A stretch of DNA of 64,000 nt from the NCBI GenBank assembly GCA_050952645.1, contig JBMNLI010000017.1, positions 196,970-260,969 of the forward strand, written 5' to 3'. Source of the stretch: Bdellovibrionota bacterium. GTDB lineage: Bacteria; Bdellovibrionota_C; UBA2361; CAKMMH01. Of the stretch, positions 12,873-63,134 are shown piece after piece (positions within the stretch are counted from its first letter, which is position 1; each line of letters starts with the position of its first letter). The notes under the pieces are model-generated. The model worked only from the letters and a program-made list of their open reading frames with translations. It made no database searches and had not been told where the DNA came from. The translations under genes and the position numbers were made by a program.

Positions 12873-13427
12873 ATGTCCTTTTTAAAACGATTTTGGAACT
12901 CCTTAGGGGAGCTCTTTGATTGGTTTGCAATTGCTTGCTTTGCCTTGTTAGTAGTGTTTGCGTTTGCGCAAAATACTGAGATTGAGAGACTCGAAGGCCA
13001 AGTGGCACTTTCTGAATACGCAATTGCGTTACATGGGTACACTGCGGCTCTGAAAAGCGAATTAGCATTTTACGACAAGCTTGCCGAATTGGCTAGGGAG
13101 TACAATGAAGTTGGAGAGGAAGCCGACGCAGCGGTAGGACGCCTTCGCAAACGCCTAGATGAAATCGAAGCAAGAAAGCAAGCTGCCAGCGAGCAAGGTT
13201 TGCAAGAAGCAGCACCGCAACAAGCGACAATGCCAGAAGCGACAACGCCAGAGGCACCGCAACAAGCGACAACGCCGAAAGCAAAATCGCCTGAAGCACC
13301 GCAGGAAGCGGAAGCGCCAGAAACGGAAGCGCCGAAAGCAAAATCGCCAAATGCGACATCGCAAGCATTGCAAAACTCGCAAAAAAAGTCTGGCATCACA
13401 GTAAGGTACTACGAGCAGCACCCTTAA
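12873..13427 (+). CDS. Hypothetical membrane-anchored coiled-coil protein with a P/A/E/T/K-rich imperfect tandem repeat tail; about 47% GC against about 28% flanking
   Basis: N-terminal TM, RBS GGAGG, internal repeats (PEAxxPE...). Antisense ORFs in the track are GC-driven artefacts. Confidence 0.55.
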   Translation: MSFLKRFWNSLGELFDWFAIACFALLVVFAFAQNTEIERLEGQVALSEYAIALHGYTAALKSELAFYDKLAELAREYNEVGEEADAAVGRLRKRLDEIEARKQAASEQGLQEAAPQQATMPEATTPEAPQQATTPKAKSPEAPQEAEAPETEAPKAKSPNATSQALQNSQKKSGITVRYYEQHP

Positions 13428-13635
13428 GTCGTTTAGAAGGTTCTAGGTCTTTTTTTAAGACCTTTTAGGTTCCTTCTAGAGACGCTAGCGACCACTAAGG
13501 AAGCTCTCTTTTTTGAGGGCTTCTTTCTTTTTATCTTTTAAAAATCTTCTCTGTCCCTCTTTTTATTTCTTATTTTTTATCCTAAACTTTTTTTATTCTA
13601 AACCCTACTCTCATTTTGCTTATGTTATATTTTTT

Positions 13636-13910
13636 GGTTCTTCACGTTTTAGGTGGGTTAGAGTCTATCTTCTAATTTAAATTGACAAAATTATTTTACA
13701 AAACTGTTGTTGTTTTATTAAAATAATAGTTAATTTTATTGGTAAAATAAATATTAGAGTTGTTAGGAAAAGTTATCCATAACTGATAGCTTGGCCCCAG
13801 CAATAAAAAGCTAAAGGTCAAGCTGTCAGGCTGTGGATAACTTTCACAAAGACTCCATTAAACAGAATGGCGTTTTGTTTCTCTAGGGGGCCATTTAAAA
13901 CGTGAAGAGC
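13636..13910. repeat. MITE-like element, subfamily 1 (275 bp), TIR GGTTCTTCACGTTTTAGGTGGGTT / CCATTTAAAACGTGAAGAGC; internal DnaA-box-like pair
   Basis: Near-identical copies at 42116..42381 and 62576..62817; internal TTATCCATA and TGTGGATAA. Confidence 0.8.
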
Positions 13911-13982
13911 TAAAAGTTTGGGTTTTATCTTAGGAATATCAACAAAGCTCTGTAATAGAACTAAAATTTTTAGCTAAAAAGA

Positions 13983-33584: not shown

Positions 33585-33975
33585 ATTTAAGTTAATTGTT
33601 TAAGTTAATTATCAAGACTAATTATCTATACTAAATTATCTATATTATTATTAACAGAGCAAATTATTAAAAATATACTATCAATAAGCATTGCTTATGC
33701 GCTACTAACAAAAATTAGTTCTTCACGTTTTAAGTGGGGTAGGAAAAAAATTGTTTCTTTAATTAGCTTAAAAGAAAATTGGCTTTGATAGAAAACTAGC
33801 TATAAATTAAAAAAAAATGACAACTATATTAAAAGTCAATTTTCTTTTGGCCCCCGTGGTGAGTGATACTAATCTTTTAGAGTTTAAAATCACTTTGAAA
33901 CGTGAGGAACGTTTTTAGTTCTTCACGTTTTAAGTGCGGTGGAAAAAAATGTTTCTTTACTACGTTTAAATTTTT

Positions 33976-36575
33976 CTACCTTAAATCTTTTGCAATATTT
34001 TCTAGTAGTGGCGGTCTTAATAAAATATTTCTTGCTTCTAACGCCTGCGCGGCAAGAGATGGGAACACTCCTTCAAGTCTAGATATTTGATTTAAATGAT
34101 CGGCGGTTTGAGAAATAAGTCTTGAAGCATCCCCTTCAGCTACTCCTGCAAGCCTAAGTATCGATGCAAACGATGACCAATCTTGCGAATCCATCCAAGT
34201 AGTTACAGTAATAGCAGCAGACGGCTGCACTACTACCTCATCTCTATTCTTATTTTCATACGCTAATTTTACGTACTCTACAATTCTCGTCATCTCATCA
34301 AAATACTGTTTCTTTATAAGATTCTTTTTAATATTTATATACGACCTATAAGAATCTCCAGCAATGCTAGCTACAAGCCCGACTAGTTCATAAGCATCTA
34401 AATCTTCAAAAAGTCCACTATCGATAGCCTCAGCGAGTTCTAAAACCAAACTCGTGCAAAGTTCTGCCGCCCAATGTCCTTTAGGAGTTAATTTTTTATC
34501 TTTTATATGTCCTAAACTTTCTAGAACTCTAACCGTATTTTCTAATTGTAAAGATTGCCTATTTTTTAGGAGTTCCACTTCTCTTTGTCTTCTATTTATC
34601 TTCTTTCTAAATTTTTTAGCAACTTCAGTTTGAAGTGTATCTTTCTTTTCTTCATACTCTCTTTGTAATTCCTTTAGCTCCTCTTGAAGTTTGCTAGCTT
34701 CTTTTCTATCTAGAAAACCAGCAAAACTTTTTTCTACTAAAAATCTTAAATCTTCAACGGAACGAAATTTTAATAGATTAAGAACCGTTGATGGTGCTGC
34801 AAAATAAGCAGACCTTAAAGGCTCTACGGGTTTTTTTATAATATCACTTACCACTCTTGCATCTGAAAAAAGCCCTGGCGCTACTAAACAAATTCCCACC
34901 GAATCTTTTCCACGTCTTCCAGCTCGACCAGACATTTGCTGAAACTCAGACGAGGTTAAAATTTTAAATCCATCTGCCCCTCTTTTGCTATGAGCAGTAA
35001 TCACAGTCGTTCTTGCAGGAAAATCTACCCCTGCTGCCACAGTGCCAGTTGCTATCATAAGCCTAAGAACTCCTCTTACCATAAGTTCTTCTAAGAGCAA
35101 TCTCCAAAGCAAAAGTTGCCCAGCGTGATGCGCCCCAGCCCCAGTTTTTATTAGTGCTTCATATTGAAGATGCCCAAAGATAACCTCTCTTTCCATGGAA
35201 TATTTTTCAACAATCTTTTCAACCTCTGCTTTCAGCACTTCTTGTTCGTCTAGCGGAAGTTCAGCGCTAGGTCTTATTGAAAGTTTTTCTATATCATCAT
35301 CACACTGTCTTCTCGATGTTCTAAATAATAATGCTGGAAGTAAATTGTCTTTTTTTAATTGCATCAACATTGTATATACTGGATATTCACTTATCATTTT
35401 ACTAATTTCACCTTTTTTTATATTGCTATTATATTACTTTATATATTACTTTAATTTATTTTTTAATTTATTCTCTACATTTTAAGATAGTTAAAACTAT
35501 CTAACACATACATTTTCCCATATGCATAAAGCGTTAAAAACCCTAAAAGTTTACCTTTAGCGTCCTTTTATACGGCTCTTTCTCTGTTTTCCGCTTTGCG
35601 TTCCTTTTCCTTTAAAATTACTTTTAGTTCTTCTAGATGTTTTTCCTTTTCTTCGCCACCCCTCATCTCCTTTATAAGCCTTTCTAAATGAGATTCTCGT
35701 AAACTTCATTCCACTAGAATCAAGTCCTGCCTTGCCATAATAATCTAAAACATCCTTACAAACATTTCCCTTTTTATCATTTAAAGGTATAGGGCCAAAA
35801 TCAGGATGTAAAAACCCATATCTTAACTCTACAGGTCTATCATACTTATAAACTACATTACACTCTTTGCCTCTAACCTCTTTTAACCAAGCGGCTATCT
35901 CATCTGCATTTGAAATCGATGCAGAAAGCATTAAAAGCGCCGCTTCTTTTGCACTCAAAATTATACTCTCTTCCCAAACGGCACCTCTTTGAGGGTCTGC
36001 AATATAATGAACTTCATCAAAAACTACTAAAGAATATCTTTCTTCGACTTTATATAACTCATTTCTATAAATTTCAGTCGTTGCGATTAAAATATTTGCA
36101 TCAGTATCTATTTTTCTATCGCCAGTTAAAATACCTACTTTAAATTTAGGCTCAAATATTTTTTAAACTCATTATATTTAGTATTAGAAAGTGCCTTTAA
36201 AGGCGTCGTGTAAATAGAACGCCCTCCTTGTTCGGCATTAGCTTTTATCGCCTCTAGAGCGATAAAAGTTTTTCCTGCTCCCGTCGGGGCTACTACGAGC
36301 GTATCATTTCCAAGGACTACGGATTCTATGGCTTCTTTTTGAAAATCATCTATAACAAATTCCGTATTTTCAGGAACTCCTATACCAGATAAAAACTCTT
36401 TTTTCTCTTTACTTATCCTTACCCCTCTACTATCACCACCATTACTATTGCTACTTCTCTTCTCGATACTGTTCTTATTGCCGTTCTTATTACCATTCTT
36501 ATTATTGTCATTATTCTTTTCCTTATTATTATCCTTATTCCTATTATTTTTTTTATTATTATTTTTATAACTCAT
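33976..36575 (-). pseudogene. Ski2-like/DEAD-DEAH superfamily-2 helicase broken into 3 or more ORFs (36135..36575 N-term motif I; 35557..35958 motif III; 33976..35397 motifs IV-VI) with an ORF-free gap at 35398..35556
   Basis: PTGAGKT (motif I), DEVH (motif II) encoded in a different frame between 35958 and 36135, SAS (motif III), QMSGRAGRRG (motif VI); multiple frame changes. Confidence 0.7.
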
Positions 36576-36789
36576 ATAAAATTTCCTTAAATCTTTTTTA
36601 AAAACTAACCTTTCTTTTAATTTATTTTATTTAAAATTTATTTTTTAAAACTTTAAAGCTCTTAATATTTTAATCTAATCTTAATTTAGAGAGCAAAAAT
36701 TCTCTTTAGTATTTACACAACCGCTCTTTAAATCCTTTAAAAAAATATCACCTTTAGACATACCTTAAAACGTCAAAGAACCTAAAAAT

Positions 36790-37073
36790 TAGCTCTTCAC
36801 GTTTTAAGTGGGTTAAAGTCTATCTTCTAATAAATTGACAAAACTATTTTGTTCTTCACTTTTAAAGGTGATTTAAGACCTTAAAATTAGTATCACTCAC
36901 CTCACGAAGCCCAAAAGAAAATTGACTTTAAAGGAATTGGCATAAAATAAATTAACTTTAAATATAGCTGTAATTTTTTTTTTGAAACTATAGTTAGTTT
37001 TATATAAAAGTCAATTTTCTTTTAAGCTAACCTAAAAAACAATTTTTCTAACCCACTTAAAACGTCAAAGAAC
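36790..37073. repeat. MITE-like element, subfamily 2 (284 bp), uninterrupted; contains the intact intron target CACGAAGCCCAAAAG
   Basis: TIRs GCTCTTCACGTTTTAAGTGGGTT / AACCCACTTAAAACGTCAAAGAACC; copy at 48078..48302. Confidence 0.8.
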
Positions 37074-37200
37074 CTAAAAATTAGCTCTTCACATTTTAAG
37101 TGGGTTAAAGTCTATCTTCTAATAAATTGACAAAACTATTTTGTTCTTCACTTTTAAAGGTGATTTAAGACCTTAAAATTAGTATCACTCACCCCACGAA

Positions 37201-39097
37201 ATAGGGTAGAGCGAGGGCTATACCCTCTCCCTCCCGTCGCACCGTACGTACGGGTCTCGTATACGGCGCTCCATTAATATAATATCAAGTAATACTCAGG
37301 TAATACGTCAAAGGGTCGATTAAACCAATTCGTTCCTTTGTTTTACGCCCCAATATTTTAGGGCTTAATGCATAATTCACTACGTACCACGAACTGCGTC
37401 TATACCAGCCGAGTCTGCTGTTAGCAACCTTATAGATTTCTTCATTTCTAAAATTGCAACCAAGCATTCGGTTCAATTTCTTAAGATTTAGATAGATTCG
37501 TCTCGGCAATTTCCACTGTTTAAGTATTATAACCCTCACTTTGTGTCTAAGCCATTGACCATATTTATCTATAAAAGTCTTAAGAGTTCCTATCTTATAA
37601 TAGTTTATCCAACCTTTAATTAACCAGCTTAGCTGTTGAAATGTCGAACCTAACGTTCGTGCCATTGCCTTCCGTCTACAAAGAATTTCTCTAGTTTTAT
37701 CATAGAGTTTTCGTTTGCGATCTTCAGCAGGTTTACATTTCCAAGTTTTATACCCACTCTTCCAGTAGGTAAAGCCTAAGAAAGTGCTTTCCGTCGGCCT
37801 AGAGATTTTACTCTTACTTGAATTAATTTTAAGTCGTAGCTTACGCTCCAACCAACTCGCAACGGACTTCATTACTCTATTAGCAGCCTTTTCACTTCTA
37901 ACAAATATATTACAGTCATCGGCATATCTAACAAACTTAAGTCCTCTTGCTTCCAGTTCCTTGTCGAGTCTTATCAAGGTATATGTTAGATAATACTGGG
38001 GATAATGGACCTCCTTGCGGAACTCCTTTCTCACTTACAGTAAACAATCCATCTTCCATTATACCAGCTCTTAAGAACTGTCTTATCAATCGTAGTGTCT
38101 TCGCATCTTTGATGCGTTCCCTGATTATCGAAATTAATTTGTCGTGATTAACAGTATCAAAATATTTCTCTATGTCTAGGTCTATAACCCAATCATAGCC
38201 TCTTTTCAAGTACTCAAGAGTTCTATATACTGCTAGATGGCAATTCCTTCTAGGTCTAAAGCCATAGCTACTATTACTAAAATACTTTTCGTATCCGCGT
38301 GCTAGTATTTGCGCTACCGCTTGTTGAATTACCCTATCTACTACTGTAGGTATTCCTAAAGGTCTCATCTTACCATTAGCTTTAGGTATATACACTCTCT
38401 TAACTGGACTCGGCTTATAATTCCCTTCACGTATCTGAGATTTTATCTCTTCTCTGTGAACGGCAAAATAGTCTTCAAGCTCATCTACTGGCATATCATC
38501 TACACCAGATGCACCTTTATTTCGCTTAAACAGCCTTTATAGCCTCATCTATATTTTTGTCTGATATAATTAGTTCAATCAATTCCACCTGTTGCTCCTC
38601 CCTCTGTTTGTAAAGCTACTAGAAAACACCCCCTCTATCTTCTGCCCCCACAGGTTACGTTCCTGTTTGTTAGGCATATCCTTCAATTTCGGACTCTTCT
38701 AGCCTTGCTTACAGTGATTCACAATATATTAACGTTCAACCCTTCCTTGAGTGGTGTCTCAAGTACTATGGTATCAACTGACTTCCAGATATAAGCTTTA
38801 TATCGCACGTGCATAGCACGCTATCTGGACCTCCCGGGGTAAGGCATAGTTCTTTCACCAGACAACCTCCAGATTTACTCGTTTGGTTTTACGTTTGTCT
38901 TTAGGGCTTCGGTTTGTAGCGCAACCTCACCCACCATTTAGCCTTGTATCTGGTTTCTGTTCGTAGGCTCCTTGGTTTTGATCCGCCACTTCCTTCACTC
39001 TAACATTACTGCTTCGAGCTTGTGGCATCACTACACTTGGTGACAACTACCCGTGACGGGACTTTCACCCGCTAGAACTATGTCGTGCCCGGCACAC
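37201..39097 (-). mobile_element. Bacterial group II intron (about 1.9 kb) with 5' GUGUG and 3' ...CUACCCUAU boundaries, no En domain; inserted into a MITE
   Basis: Boundaries defined by alignment with the uninterrupted MITE copies; RT/maturase ORF inside. Confidence 0.8.
37285..38494 (-). CDS. Group II intron-encoded reverse transcriptase/maturase, split into two ORFs by a +1 base in an AA run near 37985
   Basis: RT domains (RPLGIPTVVDRV, GVPQGGPLSPVLSNIYLD | RLDKELEARG, YADDCNIF) and maturase domain X. Removing one A restores ...NIYLDRLDKELEARG... Confidence 0.8.
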
Positions 39098-39270
39098 GCC
39101 CAAAAGAAAATTGACTTTAAAGGAATTTGCATAAAATAAATTAACTTTAAATATAGCTGTAATTTTTTTTTTGAAACTATAGTTAGTTTTATATAAAAGT
39201 CAATTTTCTTTTAAGCTAACCTAAAAAAACAATTTTCTAACCCACTTAAAACGTCAAAGAACCTAAAAAT

Positions 39271-39990
39271 TTAAATATTATATCTACAAGATATAAAATA
39301 TCTTAACTCTTTATTACTAATATTTTTTATGTTTTCTTTTTTATCATCATAAATAAGCACACCATCATTTAAAGCTAATAGATGACTAACAACTGGAAAA
39401 AGTCGCCTTAAATCGTGGCTTACTATAATCATCGTTAAGTTATATTCTTTTTGTAAATTAGATATTAACTCCATAATTACTGCGCTAGCTACTGGGTCTA
39501 GCCCACTAGTAGGGTCATCTAACAAAACTACGCTTGGGGTAGACACTAGCGCTCTTGCTAGAGATACTCTTTTTCGCATACCACCGCTAAGCTGTCCTGG
39601 CATTTTTAAATAACTATCTTTAAGCCCTACCTTATCTAGTATATCAAATATTTTGTAAGTATAATTTTTTCTTTTTTCATCACTTAAAAGCGATAAAGAG
39701 TTTCCTCTAGTAAGTGGAAAAAGAACATTATCAAAAACGTTCATCGAATCGAAAAGTGCTCCTTCTTGAAACATAAGTGAAACGTCGCTTTTATTTTTTA
39801 TACCAAGGTCGAAAGTGCCACTATCTTGCTCATATATTCCTGCAAGAACTTTTAGCAAAACGCTCTTTCCAGAAGCGGTAGGGCCTATTAACCCTGTAAT
39901 TGTGCTAGCTTTTAAACTAAATGAAACATCTTTTAGGGCTTCAACATTGCTAAATGATTTCGTTATATTATTAACTTCTATATTTTTCAT
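39271..39990 (-). CDS. ABC transporter ATP-binding protein (single NBD, MlaF/Ttg2A-like size)
   Basis: Walker A GPTASGKS, signature LSGGMRKR, Walker B LLDDPTSGLD; no permease gene adjacent. Confidence 0.8.
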   Translation of the reverse strand: MKNIEVNNITKSFSNVEALKDVSFSLKASTITGLIGPTASGKSVLLKVLAGIYEQDSGTFDLGIKNKSDVSLMFQEGALFDSMNVFDNVLFPLTRGNSLSLLSDEKRKNYTYKIFDILDKVGLKDSYLKMPGQLSGGMRKRVSLARALVSTPSVVLLDDPTSGLDPVASAVIMELISNLQKEYNLTMIIVSHDLRRLFPVVSHLLALNDGVLIYDDKKENIKNISNKELRYFISCRYNI

Positions 39991-42032: not shown

Positions 42033-42115
42033 AGTCGATTTTCTAGTTCTTCACGTTTAAAGGGGATTAGAAAAATTGTTTTTTTAAGGCTAGTTTAAAA
42101 TCTCTTAAAAAAAAT

Positions 42116-42381
42116 GGCTCTTCACGTTTTGAGTAGGTTAGAGTCTATCTTCTAATGTAAATTGACAAAATTATTTTATGAAACTGTTGTTGTTTTATTA
42201 AAATAATAGTTAATTTTATTGGGAAAAATAAACATTAGAGTTGTTAGAAAAAGTTATCCATAACTGATAGCAAGACCTAGTAATTAAAAGCTAAAGGTCA
42301 GGCTGTGGATAACTTTCACAAAGACCCCATTAAATAGAATGGCGTTTTGTCTCTCTTAACCCACCTAAAACATGAAGAACC
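42116..42381. repeat. MITE-like element, subfamily 1 (266 bp), 3' of the csp gene
   Basis: Collinear with 13636..13910; TIRs GGCTCTTCACGTTTTGAGTAGGTT / AACCCACCTAAAACATGAAGAACC. Confidence 0.8.
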
Positions 42382-42614
42382 TCTTTTTATATAATTTTTC
42401 TTATTAAAAAGCATCCTTAATTTCCTTATATAAGCCACTTAAAATAATTTAACACTTTCAACACGTTATCATAAAAATAGGCACTTTTCAAGTATTGTAT
42501 TAGGCAGTTTTCAGGCTTTTCGTTAGGCACTTTTCAGGCGATTTGCTATGCAATTTTCAAGGCTATGCAATTTTCAAAAGGGGGGGAAACTAAAACTCAT
42601 ACGTGCCTAGGCTT

Positions 42615-45094: not shown

Positions 45095-46520
45095 TCAATT
45101 AAGTTTACTAAAAACATCTTTGTGTTCTCTAAGAAAATTTATTGCCGCCGATTTAGCATCTAAGTCTTCATTTTGGTTTTTAGCTATTTGAAGCCATTTT
45201 AAAGCTTCTTTTTTATCTGTCGCTACGCCTTCTCCATTAAAATACATCATGCCGACATAAGCGGCACCTCTAGGATTCCCTTGATCTGCAGCTTTTTTAG
45301 CCCATTTAAATGCTTCTTTAAAATCTTTAGAAACTCCTTTCTCAATTATATACATATTAGTTAAAAAAAAGCTGGGCAAGTACGCTTCCACGCTCCGCAC
45401 CTTTTTTATACCATTTTACAGCTTCTTGATAATCTTGAGGAACTCCTTGACCAAGTTCATAGACAATGCCTAGGTTAGTCAATGCGTTAGCATTTTCTTT
45501 CTTAGCAGCTTTTCTATACCATTTTATCGCTTCTTTATAATCTTTTAGAACGCCTGCTCCTAACCTGTACATGCTTCCTAAATTATCTTGAGCTATAGCA
45601 TCTCCTTGCTCTGCGGCTTTTTTATACCACTTAAATGCCTCTTTATTATCTTTAGGAATGCCCTCACCATTTAAATACAAAGAACCTAAATCATTTTGAG
45701 CAATAGCAAGGCCTTGCTTGGCAGCTTTTTTATACCATTTAACAACCTCTGTATAATCCTTTGAAACACCTTGCCCATTTAAATACATCAACCCTAAATT
45801 ATACTGAGCTATGGCGATTCCTTTCTCTGCGGCTTTGATATGCCATTTTGCCGCCTCTTTATAATCTTGAGAAACTCCTTGTCCTAAAAAATACATATTA
45901 GCTAAATTAAATTGAACATTCACATCGCCTTTTTCAGCAAGAGTTATGCAAGAGTTTAATTCTTCGGAGTTAAGTTTTATATCATCTACGTTAAAGTCCT
46001 TTTTATTAAACTCGATTTTCTTTTCTGTTAAAGGGCAAGCTATTTTTTTTCCGCCGCAAGAGTAGAATAGTATTAGGAGTAATACGATTGTGATTGCAGA
46101 TATTTTTATAATTTTTTTATTTTTGCATTCGTTATTTTCTTTATTTATATTTTCTTTATTTATTTTTTCTTTATTTACATCGCTTTTATTTACATCTTTT
46201 TTATTATCGATAAATTTATTATCATTAAATTTATTATCGTTATTTTTATTACTTATTAAATTGCTAGTTTCTCTATCGTTTATTTCATTTTTAAAAACCT
46301 CACTAGCTTTTTTCCATAAAAAAGTTTCTAAGTTATCATCTTCTAAGCTGTTATCTAAAGTGCTACTAGCTAAAGTGCTATCATCTAAAGCACTACTATT
46401 TGAAATTAACGTATCTTTACTTATTCTACCTTTTTTAATTTTTTCTAAAATTTGAGATTTTGAAAAACCTCCTACTGGTTTTCCATCGATAAGCATATAG
46501 TAAATATTATTATTTTTCAT
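45095..46520 (-). CDS. Sel1/TPR-like repeat protein with N-terminal TM/signal and N/K-rich linker; split into two ORFs by +1 base in an A8 run at about 45362-45372
   Basis: Seven or more Sel1 units (GxGVxxDxxEAxKWYxKAAEQG). Removing one A gives ...AQLFLTNMYIIEKG..., in phase with the repeat. Confidence 0.75.
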
Positions 46521-47971: not shown

Positions 47972-48077
47972 GTTTTAAGGTGTTTTTAAAACCTCAAAAT
48001 TAGCATCACCCTTAAAGCTCTTAAAGCACTGGCTTTAACTCTTAAAATTATCATCAATTATTTATCATCAATATTTA

Positions 48078-48302
48078 GGCTCTTCACGTTTTATGTGGGT
48101 TAAAAACCTTTAAAATTAGTATCACTCACCTCGACGAAGCCCAAAAGAAAATTGACTTTAAAGAAATTTGCATAAAATAAATTACTTTAAATATAGTTGT
48201 AATTTTTCTTTAAACTATAGATAGTTTTCTATAAAAGCCAATTTTCTTTTAAGCTAACCCCCAATAACAATTTTTTCTAACCCACCTAAAACGTGAAGAA
48301 CC
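48078..48302. repeat. MITE-like element, subfamily 2 (225 bp) between kdsA and the PBP gene; partial solo end at about 47965..48010
   Basis: TIRs GGCTCTTCACGTTTTATGTGGGTT / AACCCACCTAAAACGTGAAGAACC; intact CGAAGCCCAAAAG site. Confidence 0.8.
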
Positions 48303-48333
48303 ATTATTTATCATCAATCGCTTATCATCTATT

Positions 48334-49193
48334 TTACGCTATTTCTCTAATTCTTAAAAGCCTATCTATTAAGCTTGGAAATTCCTTAAGTGGCACCATA
48401 TTAGGCCCATCACTTTTAGCTTTTTCTGGCTCTGGGTGAGTCTCAAAAAACAGCCCATCGCAACCTATCGCCATTGCACATCTTGCTAGAGGCTCTACTA
48501 AGCTTCTATCCCCACCTGAAGCATTTCCTAGGGCGCTCGGTTCTTGCACGCTATGCGTCGCATCGAAAATTACTGGTGCTCCAAAAGATTGCATCTTAAC
48601 TACTCCCTTAAAATCGTTTACTAAGCGTCCATAACCAAAAAAAGTTCCTCTCTCACAAATCATCACATTTTTATTCCCCGTACTATTAACCTTTTTTATA
48701 ACATTTATCATATCCGTAGGTTGCATAAATTGCCCTTTCTTAATGTTTAAAGGCTTATTAGTTTTTCCTGCAGCTAAAAGCAGATCCGTTTGTCTAGCTA
48801 AAATGCTGGAATCTGAAGCACATCACAAACATTGGCCACAATTTGAGCTTGATAGCTTTCATGAATATCTGTAATTACGGGAAGCCCCGTTTCTTTTTTA
48901 ACCTTTAATAGAGCGTTTAACCCCTCTTCGATACCTATACCACGAAAAGAATCTATGCTAGTTCTATTAGCCTTATCGAACGAGGCTTTAAATATAACAT
49001 TTATATTACGAGTTTCTTTTAAATTACTTAAAACATCGGCAATTTTTAGCAAGATTTCTTCGCTCTCTATAACGCAAGGACCCGCAATCAATAATAAAGG
49101 CATGCCCTTTCCAACTTTAAAATTTGCTATATTAACTATATTATTAGTATTTAATTCCATTTTTTCACATCCTTTTAAAAATATTATCATCAA
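48334..49193 (-). CDS. kdsA: 3-deoxy-8-phosphooctulonate (KDO8P) synthase, split by a 1-base deficit in a T run at about 48797-48801
   Basis: N-terminal ORF ends ...QIPAF*; adding one T gives [33 protein letters not shown]..., continuous with the C-terminal ORF. Confidence 0.85.
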
Positions 49194-53724: not shown

Positions 53725-56345
53725 TTAATTGATTATTTGTTTAGGTGAACTTTTTTGAAAAGTTAAGGAAGTAAAAGTAGCATTATCATCTAGATTAGGA
53801 CATTGGTCGTAAGGGTCTAAAACTTCATCTCCATCGTGATCGTTTATATCGCAATAATTTTCAGTAAGAGTTTTACATCTATAAACTCCCTTTCCTATAA
53901 CATCATAAGTAATGCCACCGATTACTATTTCGCCAGTTTTTTCCGAACACTCTTCCCCTATAAAAAAATCTTCATCGATACGACCATCGTAATCATTATC
54001 TAAACCATCACAAAGTTCAGGCTGTGGCTCAGGCGTATACGTTGCCGTGTTAGTAGGTGTATTAGTCGGCGTGTTAGTAGGTGTATTTGTTGGCACCGTC
54101 GGCGTATTTGTAGGAGTATTTGTAAAAGTATGCGTGAATGTAGGAGTAAAGGTAGGCGTAAAGGTAGGCGTTGATGCGGCGCTAGATGAACTACTATGAA
54201 AAGAAGTAGTGCTACTACTGCTACTACTAGGAGTACCATTTGGTGAAGAACTACTATGAAAAGAAGTAGTGCTACTACTGCTACTACTAGGAGTACCATT
54301 TGGTGAAGAACTACTATGAAAAGAAGTAGTGCTACTACTGCTACTACTAGGAGTACCATTTGGTGAAGAACTACTATGAAAAGAAGTAGTGCTACTACTG
54401 CTACTACTAGGAGTACCATTTGGTGAAGAACTACTAGATTGCACATTACCTTGCGAGCTAGCACTACTACCACCTCCAAAAATAATTATACCGTCTCCAT
54501 CCATATCTCCAAACCCTAAACCTTTCATCATGCGTTTACCGTCTGAAGAAAAATCTTCATCTATTTTTCCATCACAATCATTATCTAAGCCATCATAAAT
54601 TTCTAAGGTTTTCGCATCCATATTCGCTTGTGCATCACACAAAACAGGACTATCAGATATTAAACCAGCACAATAATATTTTCCATTTTCAAGGCATACT
54701 CCAAGTCCAGCAGAGCAACTTAAATTTATAGAAGAATACAAACTATCTTTACAACAAGCAGGCGTATTTGCACTACAAACTATCAGAGGCTCTTCTGTGT
54801 CTCCATTGTAGCAAGTTAGCACTCCCTCTCCTAAACATTGATTAGCTAAACCATTATCGCACTCTTTACCTAAGTTTGCATAATTCCAATGCGTAGAACA
54901 ATTAGTAGGAAACATTAGAGCTTCCCCTCCTAAGAATATCTGAGTAGGCGTTTGTCTAGAAACTTTAGTGCCATCTCCAATTTGTGCTAAAGTATTATTT
55001 CCAGTGCTGTAAAGTTTTCCAACCACATTTATTATATATAAATTATTGCTAACATTTATAATACGTTTTACATCACTAAAAATAAATTCAGGTGTTTTTT
55101 GATTAATAGTAGTATTATTCCCAATTTGTCCAAAATCATTTTTTCCAAAACAGTAAAGATTATTATCACTCGCAACTACGCAAGTAGAATTGCTAGCAAG
55201 CGACATACTATAAACACCGTCTAGGACTTTATAAAACGGACTAGAAACGCTATCCCCTTTTCCTATTTGTCCGTAATTATTAGCGCCACTACAATAAAGC
55301 TTATTCTCGTTAGTTATAGCGCAAATATGGTACTCTCCTATTGAAACTTGTTTTATATCATCTAAAACTTTTAATGGTGCTGAAACTTTGCTATCTTCTT
55401 TTGCGTCGATCGGCTTATAAGTAGCATTATTATTTCCCCAACAATAAAGCGTTCCGTCTACTTTTATAGCACAAGTATTAAGGCTAGTTATACTAACATT
55501 GCGGACATTTTCAAGCACTTTCTTAGGAGTATTCACGGAAGCGCTTAAAGTTCCGCTACCTACCTGACCAAAGCTATTTCCTCCCCAACAAAAAAGATCT
55601 CCATTAGTTTTAATAGCACAAGCGTGCGCAACTGAAGAATTTTGCAAAGACACATAACTTACATCATCTAAAATTTTAATTGGAGATACCACTCGAGAAC
55701 TAAAAGTGCCATTTCCTACATTTCCAACTTCATTATAGCCCCAGCAATATAGCGCTCCTAAAGTAGTTATAGCACATGTAGTCCACCCTCCTACTGCCAC
55801 TTGGCTTATATTAAGCTTAGGAAGTATCAACTTAGGTGTAGTCTCGTAGGTAGTATCCCCCGAGCCTAATTGACCATAATCATTTTTTCCAAAACAATAA
55901 AGCTTGCTATCTGAAATAGCACAAGTATGATCATAGCCTACACTAACGGCACTTACATTTGTAAGCCCCACAATTTTTTTAGGAGTCGATACGTGATAAT
56001 CTTTAGATGTTATTTGACCATGTTCATTTAACCCCAGCAGTAAAGTTCTCCACTTACAGAAATAGCGCAAGTAGTGCTCCCATTACTTGCTACCTGCTTT
56101 ACGCTATCTAATATAACGCTATCTAATATAGGGGCTGATGCAAAACAAGGACTATTAGAAAATATTATGATAAATAAAAAGATAAATAAAAATAAGAAAA
56201 AATTAGAAAGAAAACTAGAGAATCTTTTTATAGTTTCTAATGGTTTTCTACTATATATTTCCTTACTATATATCTCGTTATATACCTTATCATATATAGA
56301 GGGAAAAAAATTCAATAAGTTATGTTCTTTTATGATAAAATTCAT
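53725..56345 (-). CDS. Secreted RCC1-repeat protein with thrombospondin-type-3-like DxDxDG Ca-binding motifs and S/T/P-rich mucin-like linker; frameshift at about 56045 (TT for TTT); last 15 codons derive from the IS inverted repeat
   Basis: Signal peptide; RCC1 signatures (LYCFGKNDYGQLG, LYCWG.N..GQ); four perfect 60-bp tandem repeats; CDGLDNDCDGKIDED motifs. Confidence 0.8.
54181..54440. repeat. Four-plus perfect 60-bp tandem repeats inside the RCC1 protein gene (encode SSSSPNGTPSSSSSSTTSFH units)
   Basis: Four identical 60-nt lines in the sequence. Confidence 0.9.
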
Positions 56346-62506: not shown

Positions 62507-62575
62507 TAAAAAACAATTTAAAATTTCTAATTAACTAAAGGTCTCTAATGCAACGTGAGGCTCTATAAATTTTTA

Positions 62576-62817
62576 GCTCTTCACATTTTGAGTGGGTTAG
62601 AGTCTATCTTCTAATGTAAATTGACAAAATAATAGTTAATTTTATTGGCAAAAATAAACATTAGAGTTATTAGGAAAAGTTATCCATAACTGATAGCCTG
62701 GCCTAGCAATTAAAAGCTAAAGGTCAAGCTGTCAGGCTGTGGATAACTTTCACAAAGACCCCATTAAACAAAATTGCGTTTTGGTTCTCTCGGCCCCACC
62801 TAAAACGTGAAGAACCA
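62576..62817. repeat. MITE-like element, subfamily 1 (242 bp, internal 30-bp deletion), 3' of fabF
   Basis: Collinear with the 13636 and 42116 copies; same DnaA-box-like pair. Confidence 0.8.
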
Positions 62818-63134
62818 TTTTTTTAAAATGGCATAATTTTCTCTATCGCTTTAAAAAAATTTTTATTTTTTTATATCTTTTTATATCTTTTAAAATCTTA
62901 CTATTTATACCTTTTTACAGCTTTAAAAACGCTTCCTTTAAAAAAAATCTTTAAAAACTTTTTCGCTTTTTAAAAACTTGGCAAAGCTTTTGCAAGATTG
63001 CTTTATAAATACGGTTCGCTAGGAAATAAATTCCTAAAAAAGAAAAAAGGATTTTGAAATACTTTTTTATTTAGTTATTTATTTAGTTATTTATTTAATT
63101 ACATAATTTATTTAAGCCAAGGAGAGCAAGCAAA

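Follow-up and report, generated by a model that had tools for sequence, protein, structure and literature searches.

The window, that is, the whole 64-kb stretch of Bdellovibrionota DNA that was analysed, contains a group II intron of 1897 nt on the minus strand (39097..37201), which splits one of two tandem MITE-like repeats. The intron is located 174 nt downstream of the stop codon of an ABC ATPase gene and has the same orientation. This gene ends at 39271, and its stop codon overlaps the 8-mer at 39264-39271. The repeats and the target hairpin are arranged as follows.

33710..33957, minus strand: copy A4, a diverged member of the same hairpin-bearing repeat family, with one intact site (AAGC) and one degraded site (GGCC, 33838-33852) (BLAST)
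36790..37073, plus strand: MITE-like copy A1, 284 bp, both target sites empty (minus strand, between 36909 and 36908; plus strand, after 37027) (sequence, BLAST, folds)
37082..37200, plus strand: left part of MITE-like copy A2, read on the minus strand as the 3' exon, which starts TTCGTG (98.4% identical to 36790-36908)
39098..39263, plus strand: right part of copy A2, with the right terminal inverted repeat at its end (BLAST)
39098..39216, minus strand: 5' exon, made up of the target hairpin in the occupied repeat copy (sequence; folds of the equivalent empty copies)
39264..39271, also 36782-36789 and 37074-37081, plus strand: 8-mer TAAAAATT bounding the repeat units (sequence)
48078..48302, plus strand: MITE-like copy A3, core element of 225 bp, neither target site occupied (BLAST, folds)

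The repeat units are short (225-285 bp), non-coding and multicopy, and form two subfamilies with common terminal repeats. The imperfect terminal repeat motif RGYTCTTCACGTTTTAAGTGGGTTA (~25 bp) occurs 13 times in the 64-kb window with at most 3 mismatches, versus 0.00 expected. For an element with these terminal inverted repeats the label MITE seems reasonable. The 8-mer TAAAAATT is found ahead of the first tandem copy, between the copies and past the second one, and 18 nt of a further right end remain at 36764-36781. Thus the region is an array with a 292-bp period and about 2.1 units. The initial annotation correctly placed the two copies in tandem, 8 bp apart; these 8 bp are TAAAAATT, which flanks A1 and A2 but is part of the tandem period. 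The flanks of other repeat copies are AT-rich sequence with only 4-6 of 8 matching positions. The copy at 48078-48302, previously listed as uninterrupted, reads GACGAAGCCC and not CACGAAGCCC.

The boundaries of the intron were determined by BLAST of the empty copy (36782-37081) against the window. Positions 1-127 of the query match 37074-37200, and positions 128-300 match 39098-39270. The two matches abut in the query, with neither a gap nor an overlap, and thus exactly 1897 bp (37201-39097) are inserted between CGAA and GCCC. No target-site duplication was observed in this comparison of the empty and occupied copies. The junctions on the minus strand are ...AATTTTCTTTTGGGC|GTGTGCCGGG...CTCTACCCTAT|TTCGTGGGG.

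Group II introns are recognized by GUGYG/AY termini, domains V and VI with a bulged branch-point A, and a protein with reverse transcriptase (RT) and maturase (X) domains encoded in domain IV. All of these are present here. The intron starts with GUGUG and ends with CCUAU, in agreement with GUGYG/AY. The Rfam model RF02001 (group-II-D1D4-3) matches 38844-39015 on the minus strand over its full length (106.7 bits, E = 7.8e-21). The match to RF00029 (domain V/VI) scores 42.1 bits, the gathering score being 40, and its end coincides with the 3' boundary at 37201; the bulged A of domain VI is 7 nt from the 3' end of the intron. Hence the element is a real, precisely bounded group II intron. The initial annotation had derived the 1897-bp insertion, the canonical ends (the 3' one being AU) and an RT/maturase lacking an endonuclease domain from the sequence, and had proposed looking for domains V and VI near 37201; each of these points is borne out. 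The parts of the intron are listed below.

37201..39097, minus strand: complete group II intron, assigned to class IIC (Rfam, exact insertion relative to the empty copy, 100% identity to the copies L118-L122 apart from three inserted bases)
38844..39015, minus strand: core of ribozyme domains I-IV, AGGAA at intron nt 104-108 (RF02001)
38917..38920, minus strand: EBS1, 5'-GCUA-3', intron nt 178-181, in the 8-nt loop GC-GCUA-CA (covariation with 5'-exon ends in related introns)
38681, minus strand: extra G at intron nt 417, within the ribozyme part, ahead of the ORF (six-copy alignment, absent from the five others)
37285..38588, minus strand: RT/maturase ORF, GTG start preceded by AGGGAGGAG, two +1 frameshifts (translations, Pfam)
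38530, minus strand: extra T at intron nt 568, which shifts the frame of the ORF for the first time, after ...EAIKAV (translations, six-copy alignment)
37969, minus strand: extra A at intron nt 1129, which shifts the frame a second time, after ...NIYLDK (translations, six-copy alignment)
37201..37271, minus strand: domain V/VI (RF00029 alignment)

After repair of the two frameshifts the ORF encodes 433 amino acids and is 100% identical to the intact protein P0001. In one Bdellovibrionota MAG the identical 433-aa protein is listed under four NCBI accessions, and a further copy there is broken; this MAG carries MGI6680067, MGI6680120, MGI6680199, MGI6680507 and MGI6680412/414. In Pfam, the repaired ORF contains RVT_1 (3.3e-46), GIIM (2.9e-9) and nothing else; in particular, no HNH or other endonuclease domain was found. 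The best matches in PDB are the RT of the E. rectale IIC intron (7uim, 5e-107) and the GsI-IIC RT (1e-99), compared to 2e-47 for LtrA and 1.6e-37 for 6me0.

The protein matches, domain V and the EBS features together place the intron in the bacterial class C (IIC), judging from sequence comparison. The initial annotation had mentioned class C introns as a comparison only; on this evidence the intron itself is a class C one. In the alignment with RF00029, CGC replaces AGC as the triad of domain V, and the distal stem and loop of this domain are 3 nt shorter than in the Rfam consensus; the window sequence reads GAGCGCCGUAU, where the consensus is gaGAGCCGUAU. The sequence UGAAGGAAG (intron nt 101-109) is aligned with the conserved UGAAGGAAg of RF02001 and contains the AGGAA bulge motif in the epsilon-prime region. 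The CGC triad of domain V, a distal stem shorter by about 2 bp and the AGGAA motif have been described as hallmarks of IIC introns (PMC1702495). Assignment to class B, D, E or the chloroplast-like class (IIB) was also considered, about 590 nt of the intron being non-coding; these classes are excluded by the protein matches and domain V.

The EBS1 loop was identified by its covariation with the exon: in related introns, read by eye, it tracks the last 3-4 nt of the 5' exon (CGAA/TTCG, AACA/TGTT, CTTA/TAAG, TCAT/ATGA, ACGT/GCGT). In the window copy, G-C-U of EBS1 pairs with the terminal RGC of the 5' exon, which amounts to 3 bp only. EBS2-type pairing between the ribozyme and the 5' exon is at the level of chance (10 seven-mers observed, 9.5 in shuffles).

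The 5' exon is a hairpin. It is formed by a 17-bp perfect inverted repeat, AAAAGAAAATTGACTTT and AAAGTCAATTTTCTTTT, which is followed by GGGC and then by the intron. The insertion point is therefore 4 nt past the 17-bp stem, or 0 nt past it with G-T pairs included. The loop closed by this AT-rich stem is about 80 nt long. In the empty copies the stems fold on both strands (z = -3.3 to -4.9), with 0-4 unpaired nucleotides ahead of the site. Since the stem is palindromic, there is one target on each strand, ...TTTTCTTTTGGGC| and ...TTTTCTTTTAAGC|. The mirror target of copy A2, on the plus strand after 39216 (TTTTAAGC|TAAC), is empty. The target motif AATTTTCTTTTRRGC occurs 8 times in the window, versus 0.35 expected, and one of the seven exact target sites in the window is occupied. 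A scan for consensus terminators found none at the hairpin, as its stem has no G-C pairs. Promoter-like matches in this region do not exceed the chance level.

The same geometry is found in related introns. The pattern GTGTGCCGGGCA-N10-20-GGGTGAAAGTCCCG was searched for in genome contigs, and yielded a comparative set of more than 116 sites of related IIC introns in MAGs of Clostridia, Bacteroidota and Gammaproteobacteria. For 112 related-intron sites among the matches listed, the median folding energy of the upstream 45 nt is -14.1 kcal/mol versus -4.1 kcal/mol in controls (p = 3e-53), and the site is most often 4-6 nt from the stem. An exact 41-mer of the intron had 0 matches in metagenome contigs, a collection that evidently holds no samples with this organism.

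Near-identical copies of the intron from other assemblies also lie at the foot of this hairpin, some on one strand of the palindrome and some on the other. In L119 the site is unchanged, but it belongs to another repeat copy, and the genomic flanks differ; L118 and L120/L121 occupy the mirror site on the opposite strand, and L123 uses a short-loop variant of the hairpin, whose folding is not significantly better than that of shuffled sequences (z = -1.4). The 3' exons differ among the copies (TTCGTG.., TAACTC.., ATGCAA.., TCTTCT..), and those of L120 and L123 are not cognate repeat sequence. Since sites at the hairpin foot are used irrespective of the strand, and two of the 3' exons are unrelated, the target appears to be the hairpin plus RGC rather than the repeat as a whole. 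At the same time, AATTTTCTTTTRRGC is common to all occupied sites, and these data alone do not separate recognition of structure from recognition of a 15-nt sequence. The initial annotation proposed that the intron targets a multicopy repeat and suggested a search for further copies. The sites of these copies are indeed related to each other, and the multicopy target holds in the form of the hairpin inside the repeat together with a 3-nt IBS1. A long MITE-specific homing sequence does not, as both strands of the palindrome are used and unrelated 3' exons are tolerated.

Taken together, these data make it very likely that the element is a IIC retroelement that was reverse-spliced, on the minus strand, into single-stranded DNA at the 3' foot of the stem-loop of a MITE-like repeat. 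Insertion at this position of a stem-loop would follow the known IIC rule, with the 17-bp internal inverted repeat of the element taking the place of a GC-rich transcription terminator. The intron RNP would recognize the DNA stem, the 3-bp pairing EBS1(GCU)-IBS1(RGC) and one EBS3-IBS3 pair; the first base of the 3' exon is T in most copies. As the protein has no endonuclease domain, cDNA synthesis is presumably primed by the nascent strand at the replication fork. Reading of the stem as a structure in single-stranded DNA, rather than as a sequence, and priming at the fork are suggested by analogy with the systems described in PMC10190682 and PMC4424553, and the intron may be active at present.

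One could suppose instead that the intron homes in the IIA/IIB manner, reading 20-35 bp of the MITE sequence via EBS1, EBS2 and protein contacts, with no role for the hairpin. The stretch of at least 15 nt, AATTTTCTTTTRRGC, common to all known 5' exons, and the identical position of the intron in two independent repeat copies would agree with this. However, such homing is improbable: EBS2-type complementarity does not rise above chance, the EBS1 pairing is short, domain V and the protein have IIC features, the 3' exons are wholly different, and insertions are found on both strands of the palindrome. The identical position in the window copy and L119, at different loci but in the same repeat family, could also result from a single insertion event, if the loaded repeat, a 2.18-kb unit bounded by terminal inverted repeats, spread as a whole by DNA transposition or repeat duplication, to which this family is clearly prone in tandem. 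Here the two host repeats share only about 96% identity and have different terminal repeats, whereas their introns differ in nothing but the three inserted bases, so that the repeats had diverged before the intron arrived. Moreover, other copies are at the mirror site or in half-repeats, and the adjoining tandem copy A1, 98% identical, is empty. All this makes spread of the loaded unit highly improbable.

An extension of the preferred reading, reverse splicing at the foot of the hairpin, is a two-tier parasite system made up of the intron and the repeat family, with EBS1 (GCU) tuned to the RGC past the palindrome of one MITE family. We regard this as rather unlikely. If it were true, every MITE copy that arises would provide two landing pads, one on each strand, and loaded MITEs, 2.2 kb with the intron between two terminal repeats, could be moved by the MITE transposase, opening a DNA-transposition route for a retroelement. 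The MITE hairpin may then also double as a de facto terminator of upstream operons, e.g. of the ABC ATPase gene.

The intron is 1894 nt long in five other copies (L118-L122) and 1897 nt in the window, and in the six-copy alignment the window copy is set apart from the five others only by three 1-nt insertions, of which two disrupt the ORF. Probably these extra bases arose as assembly errors, the repeat being multicopy. Against five identical copies the window copy has three insertions but not one substitution, whereas the genuinely diverged copy L123 shows the reverse, with about a dozen substitutions and no private indels. In two of the three cases the extra base extends a homopolymer. Contigs built from short reads are interrupted at the repeat, so that the intron belongs to those multicopy regions that escape polishing. 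The frameshift of the broken 185-aa ORF of the window was found in no other assembly by ORF look-up. On the other hand, short-read contigs of two further samples match the unique window flanks at 100% identity over 9504 bp without a single indel, and thus the assembly of the window is accurate in general. The neighbouring helicase gene is a genuine pseudogene with the same split in an independent assembly, and, as mentioned, one copy in the related Bdellovibrionota MAG has a broken ORF too. It is conceivable, though doubtful, that the bases are real and the window copy is a recently inactivated, non-autonomous intron. The window copy is either an intact, master-type one with three spurious bases, or a very recently disabled one; in the latter case intact copies at other loci of the genome could serve it in trans. 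In annotation, the broken ORF should be treated as a probable assembly artefact, and the repeat as one that breaks contigs in short-read assemblies.

IIC introns that insert after intrinsic terminators include B.h.I1, O.i.I1, GsI-IIC and the E. rectale IIC intron. The intron of the window resembles them in its protein of about 430 aa with RT and maturase but no endonuclease, in the small ribozyme with the CGC triad, short distal stem and AGGAA, in the 3-4-bp EBS1-IBS1 pairing without EBS2, and in the position of its site, which is non-coding, co-oriented with the upstream gene and a few nucleotides past a DNA stem-loop. The target itself is different. Terminator targets are GC-rich, with a small loop and a separate T-run, whereas here the 17-bp stem is almost pure A/T, the T-rich stretch is inside the stem arm, and the hairpin with its ~80-nt loop is part of a dispersed repeat. 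In canonical IIC targets the stem measures about 12 bp and the loop is small (PMC10190682).

This is a tidy example of the known IIC targeting rule, not a new kind of system. A second group of IIC introns, the IIC-attC introns such as S.ma.I2, insert at the attC sites of integrons. Like them, the intron described here represents a IIC lineage specialized on repeated, imperfectly palindromic elements that fold as single strands, and thus its supply of targets depends on another mobile system. Unlike them, it uses both strands of a nearly perfect palindrome, and its host is a MITE-like repeat and not an integron cassette site. According to the title of Leon and Roy 2009, listed in PMC4424553, attC targeting relies on a bulged stem-loop motif. 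Bacterial group II introns at palindromic multicopy extragenic repeats are also found in Pseudomonas putida KT2440, where, as given in a table of PMC1525189, only two of nine copies are associated with REP elements; here, each of the five occupied sites recovered lies at the repeat hairpin. The stem-loop rule of IIC introns thus extends beyond terminators and attC to a dispersed palindromic repeat, with the same intron on both strands of the palindrome, and one selfish element supplies niches for another in an AT-rich Bdellovibrionota genome. The natural variants of the hairpin (long or short loop, GGGC or AAGC, degraded GGCC) are ready substrates for tests of structure versus sequence in IIC targeting.

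The sense strand of the intron is the G-rich, gene-rich strand. This orientation fits insertion into the lagging-strand template, for one copy and with gene-orientation bias as a confounding factor. The use of both strands, the variable 3' exons and the strand orientation lend indirect support to recognition of the stem-loop as a structure in single-stranded DNA and to priming at the fork.

The group II intron occupies positions 39097..37201 of the minus strand, within the second of two tandem MITE-like repeats. Read directly, the minus strand at its ends is ...AAAGTCAATTTTCTTTTGGGC / GTGTGCCGGGCACGAC ... GCTCTACCCTAT / TTCGTGGGGTGAGTG, where slashes mark the exon/intron junctions. When the uninterrupted repeat copy (36782-37081) was searched against the window with BLAST, its positions 1-127 matched 37074-37200 (98.4%) and positions 128-300 matched 39098-39270 (97.7%). 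The two halves are directly contiguous in the query, with zero gap and zero overlap, and thus the insert is exactly 1897 bp (37201-39097) between CGAA and GCCC, as the initial annotation had proposed. No target-site duplication at the intron was seen in this comparison of empty and occupied copies, which is what reverse splicing would leave. Rfam models searched over the whole window matched twice, both times within the insert:

38844-39015, minus strand, RF02001 (group-II-D1D4-3), 106.7 bits, full model length
37201-37271, minus strand, RF00029 (domain V/VI), 42.1 bits, final model position at the proposed 3' boundary

Domain V, anticipated near the 3' boundary in the initial annotation, is present, and its match ends at 37201.

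The intron belongs to class C (IIC). The closest solved relatives of its protein are IIC reverse transcriptases throughout: the E. rectale IIC RNP protein (7uim, E = 5e-107, residues 3-430 aligned), the GsI-IIC RT (1e-99), and Roseburia and Eubacterium IIC RT fragments (about 1e-90), whereas LtrA (IIA) and the 6me0 maturase gave 2e-47 and 1.6e-37. The RNA hallmarks of IIC introns were listed by Toor et al. (PMC1702495). All of them are visible in the Rfam alignments: a domain V triad CGC instead of the AGC of other classes (GAGCGCCGUAU versus consensus gaGAGCCGUAU), a distal stem of domain V shortened by a 3-nt deletion, and the AGGAA motif (UGAAGGAAG). The EBS1 loop, placed by homology, is at intron nt 176-183 (GC-GCUA-CA). 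In examples of related introns read by eye among the matches listed, the central four bases of this loop change along with the last bases of the 5' exon (CGAA with TTCG, AACA with TGTT, AAAG with CTTT, CTTA with TAAG, TCAT with ATGA, ACGT with GCGT). Here EBS1-IBS1 pairing amounts to 3 bp, GCU with GGC or AGC. Further complementarity between ribozyme and 5' exon is no greater than in shuffled controls (10 seven-mers versus 9.5), and thus there is no sign of EBS2. The group II intron in a MITE-like repeat is confirmed, and what had been a comparison with class C becomes an assignment based on the protein, domain V, AGGAA and EBS1.

The host repeat is 225-285 bp long, AT-rich (25% GC) and non-coding. 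Imperfect inverted repeats of about 25 bp form its ends (RGYTCTTCACGTTTTAAGTGGGTTA; 13 in the window, none expected). There are two subfamilies with common terminal inverted repeats:

36790-37073, subfamily A (hairpin-bearing), empty
37082-39263, subfamily A, carrying the intron
48078-48302, subfamily A
33710-33957, minus strand (reverse orientation), subfamily A
13629-13913, subfamily B (interior differs)
42109-42389, subfamily B
62573-62823, subfamily B

The subfamily B interior contains a DnaA-box-like inverted pair, AGTTATCCATAAC / TGTGGATAACT. The two copies at the locus form a short tandem array and are not independent insertions: they start 292 bp apart, the 8-mer TAAAAATT stands before, between and after them, giving the 8-bp spacing noted initially, and an 18-nt remnant of a further right end lies upstream. 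The label MITE is fair as "MITE-like", given the short, non-coding element with terminal inverted repeats; it is not proven. No clear target-site duplications were found for the remaining repeat copies in the window. The copy at 48078-48302 is flanked on both sides (48040-48075 and 48303-48340) by the 11-mer TTATCATCAAT and its variant TTATCATCTAT, possibly as an iteron-like array or as a duplicated target of some length.

In minus-strand reading, the right-hand portion of the repeat serves as the 5' exon. It holds a perfect 17-bp inverted repeat, AAAAGAAAATTGACTTT ... AAAGTCAATTTTCTTTT, with arms spaced by about 80 nt; after the second arm come GGGC and the intron. The empty copies, folded as single-stranded DNA, form the 17-bp stem on both strands (z-scores -3.3 to -4.9). 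On the plus strand the stem is followed by four unpaired bases, AAGC, and on the minus strand it can be extended through GGGC by G-T pairs. The geometry of IIC targets is a stem, a short spacer, IBS1 and IBS3 (PMC10190682; PMC4424553), and the predicted arrangement of hairpin and site matches it. For related introns, no fewer than 112 distinct sites were compared with control windows: the 45 nt before the site have a median folding energy of -14.1 kcal/mol versus -4.1 in the controls (Mann-Whitney p = 3e-53), and the gap between stem and site is most often 4-6 nt. Related introns among the matches listed have an upstream GC-rich hairpin followed by a T-run, whereas the present hairpin consists almost entirely of A/T, with the T-rich stretch inside the stem arm. 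The hairpin loop also contains a sigma-70-like sequence, TTGACT-16-TATAGT (10/12), at 39176-39203 and 36987-37014 of the minus strand, about 80 nt upstream of the intron 5' end. Promoter-like matches in the AT-rich repeat region are not beyond chance (11 versus 9.5 expected).

Five occupied sites were compared, the four others being on contigs from other assemblies.

Occupied sites (position; 5' exon / 3' exon; remarks)
Window copy; minus-strand hairpin foot; ...TTTTGGGC / TTCGTG
L119; position as in the window; ...TTTTGGGC / TTCGTG; other repeat copy, about 96% identical, terminal repeats and genomic flanks differ
L118; mirror site, plus strand; ...GC / TAACTCCC...; 3' exon continues into the right terminal repeat
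L120/L121; mirror site; ...AAAGCCAATTTTCTTTTAAGC / ATGCAAAAAAGC; 3' exon not cognate repeat sequence
L123; short-loop hairpin variant; ...AAATTTTCTTTTGGGC / TCTTCTAAG; 3' exon at the end of an unrelated gene

In all five the intron lies at the 3' foot of the hairpin, on either strand, so that other copies occupy related and not unrelated sites. The intron demands little of the 3' exon, which starts with T at all but one of these sites. In L120 (2069-2085) the 3' exon resembles the subfamily B interior, and in L123 (2380-3324) it falls at the end of a 116-aa gene; in neither is the repeat continued, which points to repeats that are mosaic or halved, or to recombination among copies of the intron.

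The same 15 nt (AATTTTCTTTTRRGC) are common to all occupied sites, and thus the stem arm could conceivably be recognised by sequence. The window contains seven exact and one degraded (GGCC) occurrence of this motif, versus 0.35 expected, and just one is occupied. Spread of a loaded repeat as a single unit is argued against by the identities, 80-96% among the host repeats versus at least 99.2% among the introns. The repeats, being less alike, diverged first, and the intron invaded them later, recently and repeatedly.

The intron ORF starts with GTG at intron nt 510 (window 38588), just after AGGGAGGAG, and is broken by two +1 frameshifts, after ...EAIKAV and after ...NIYLDK. Deletion of one base at each yields a 433-aa protein with the domains RVT_1 and GIIM and no others, in agreement with the RT/maturase lacking an endonuclease domain described initially. 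It is 100% identical over the full length to an intact protein from a public collection (P0001), whose cluster includes P0121 (four NCBI accessions from a single "Bdellovibrionota bacterium" MAG) and a split copy, P0122 and P0123, from the same MAG. Alignment with five intron copies (L118-L122; sources: three JGI metagenomes, two Logan assemblies) showed no substitutions and three additional single bases in the window:

38681, extra G
38530, extra T
37969, extra A

Thus the element is 1894 nt elsewhere. The unique flanks of the window are 100% identical, with no indels, to short-read contigs from two other samples, L001 (1914 bp) and L124 (7590 bp), both of which terminate within the repeat. 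The truly diverged copy in L123 (99.2% identical) has substitutions and no indels of its own. Three insertions without substitutions, limited to a multicopy element, are most like unpolished assembly errors, and this is the probable explanation. That the bases are real and the window intron was inactivated very recently is less likely.

IIC introns are described as lying downstream of inverted repeats, transcriptional terminator motifs included (PMC1702495), integron attC sites are targets of a minority of them (PMC4424553), and REP elements are associated with 2/9 group II intron copies in Pseudomonas putida KT2440 (PMC1525189). Text searches of an incomplete body of literature turned up no earlier IIC intron that specialises on a MITE hairpin and inserts into either strand of it. 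The insertion mechanism is the known IIC one; new here are the kind of element that hosts the intron, the fact that the palindrome is used symmetrically, and Bdellovibrionota as the lineage. The initial interpretation is supported and sharpened: the intron is of class C and sits at a hairpin carried by a repeat.

The stop codon of an ABC ATPase gene (39271-39273, minus strand) adjoins the repeat. Downstream of this gene, at a distance of 174 nt and in the same orientation, lies the intron, the usual position for IIC introns. The plus-strand GC skew is negative in 15/16 4-kb bins and the majority of window genes are on the minus strand, so the intron sense strand is presumed leading-strand sequence. 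As weak evidence from a single copy, this fits an endonuclease-less intron invading the lagging-strand template. The GC content of the intron (40.5% versus 31.4% in the window) and the next-nearest proteins, about 77% identical and from metagenome contigs, are consistent with horizontal acquisition.

A Ski2-like (DEAD / DSHCT) helicase gene (33976-36575, minus strand) is split into three ORFs, with a frameshift near 36145 and, at 35398-35556, a gap rich in stop codons. The split is identical in the independent short-read contig L124 (100% identity over 7590 bp), and thus this is a real pseudogene. Coding tandem repeats were observed at three positions:

45180-45931, 108-nt period, about 7 units, 60-80% identical
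54125-54484, 60-nt period, central three units 99% identical
13197-13367, 15-nt period, encoding a stretch rich in proline and alanine
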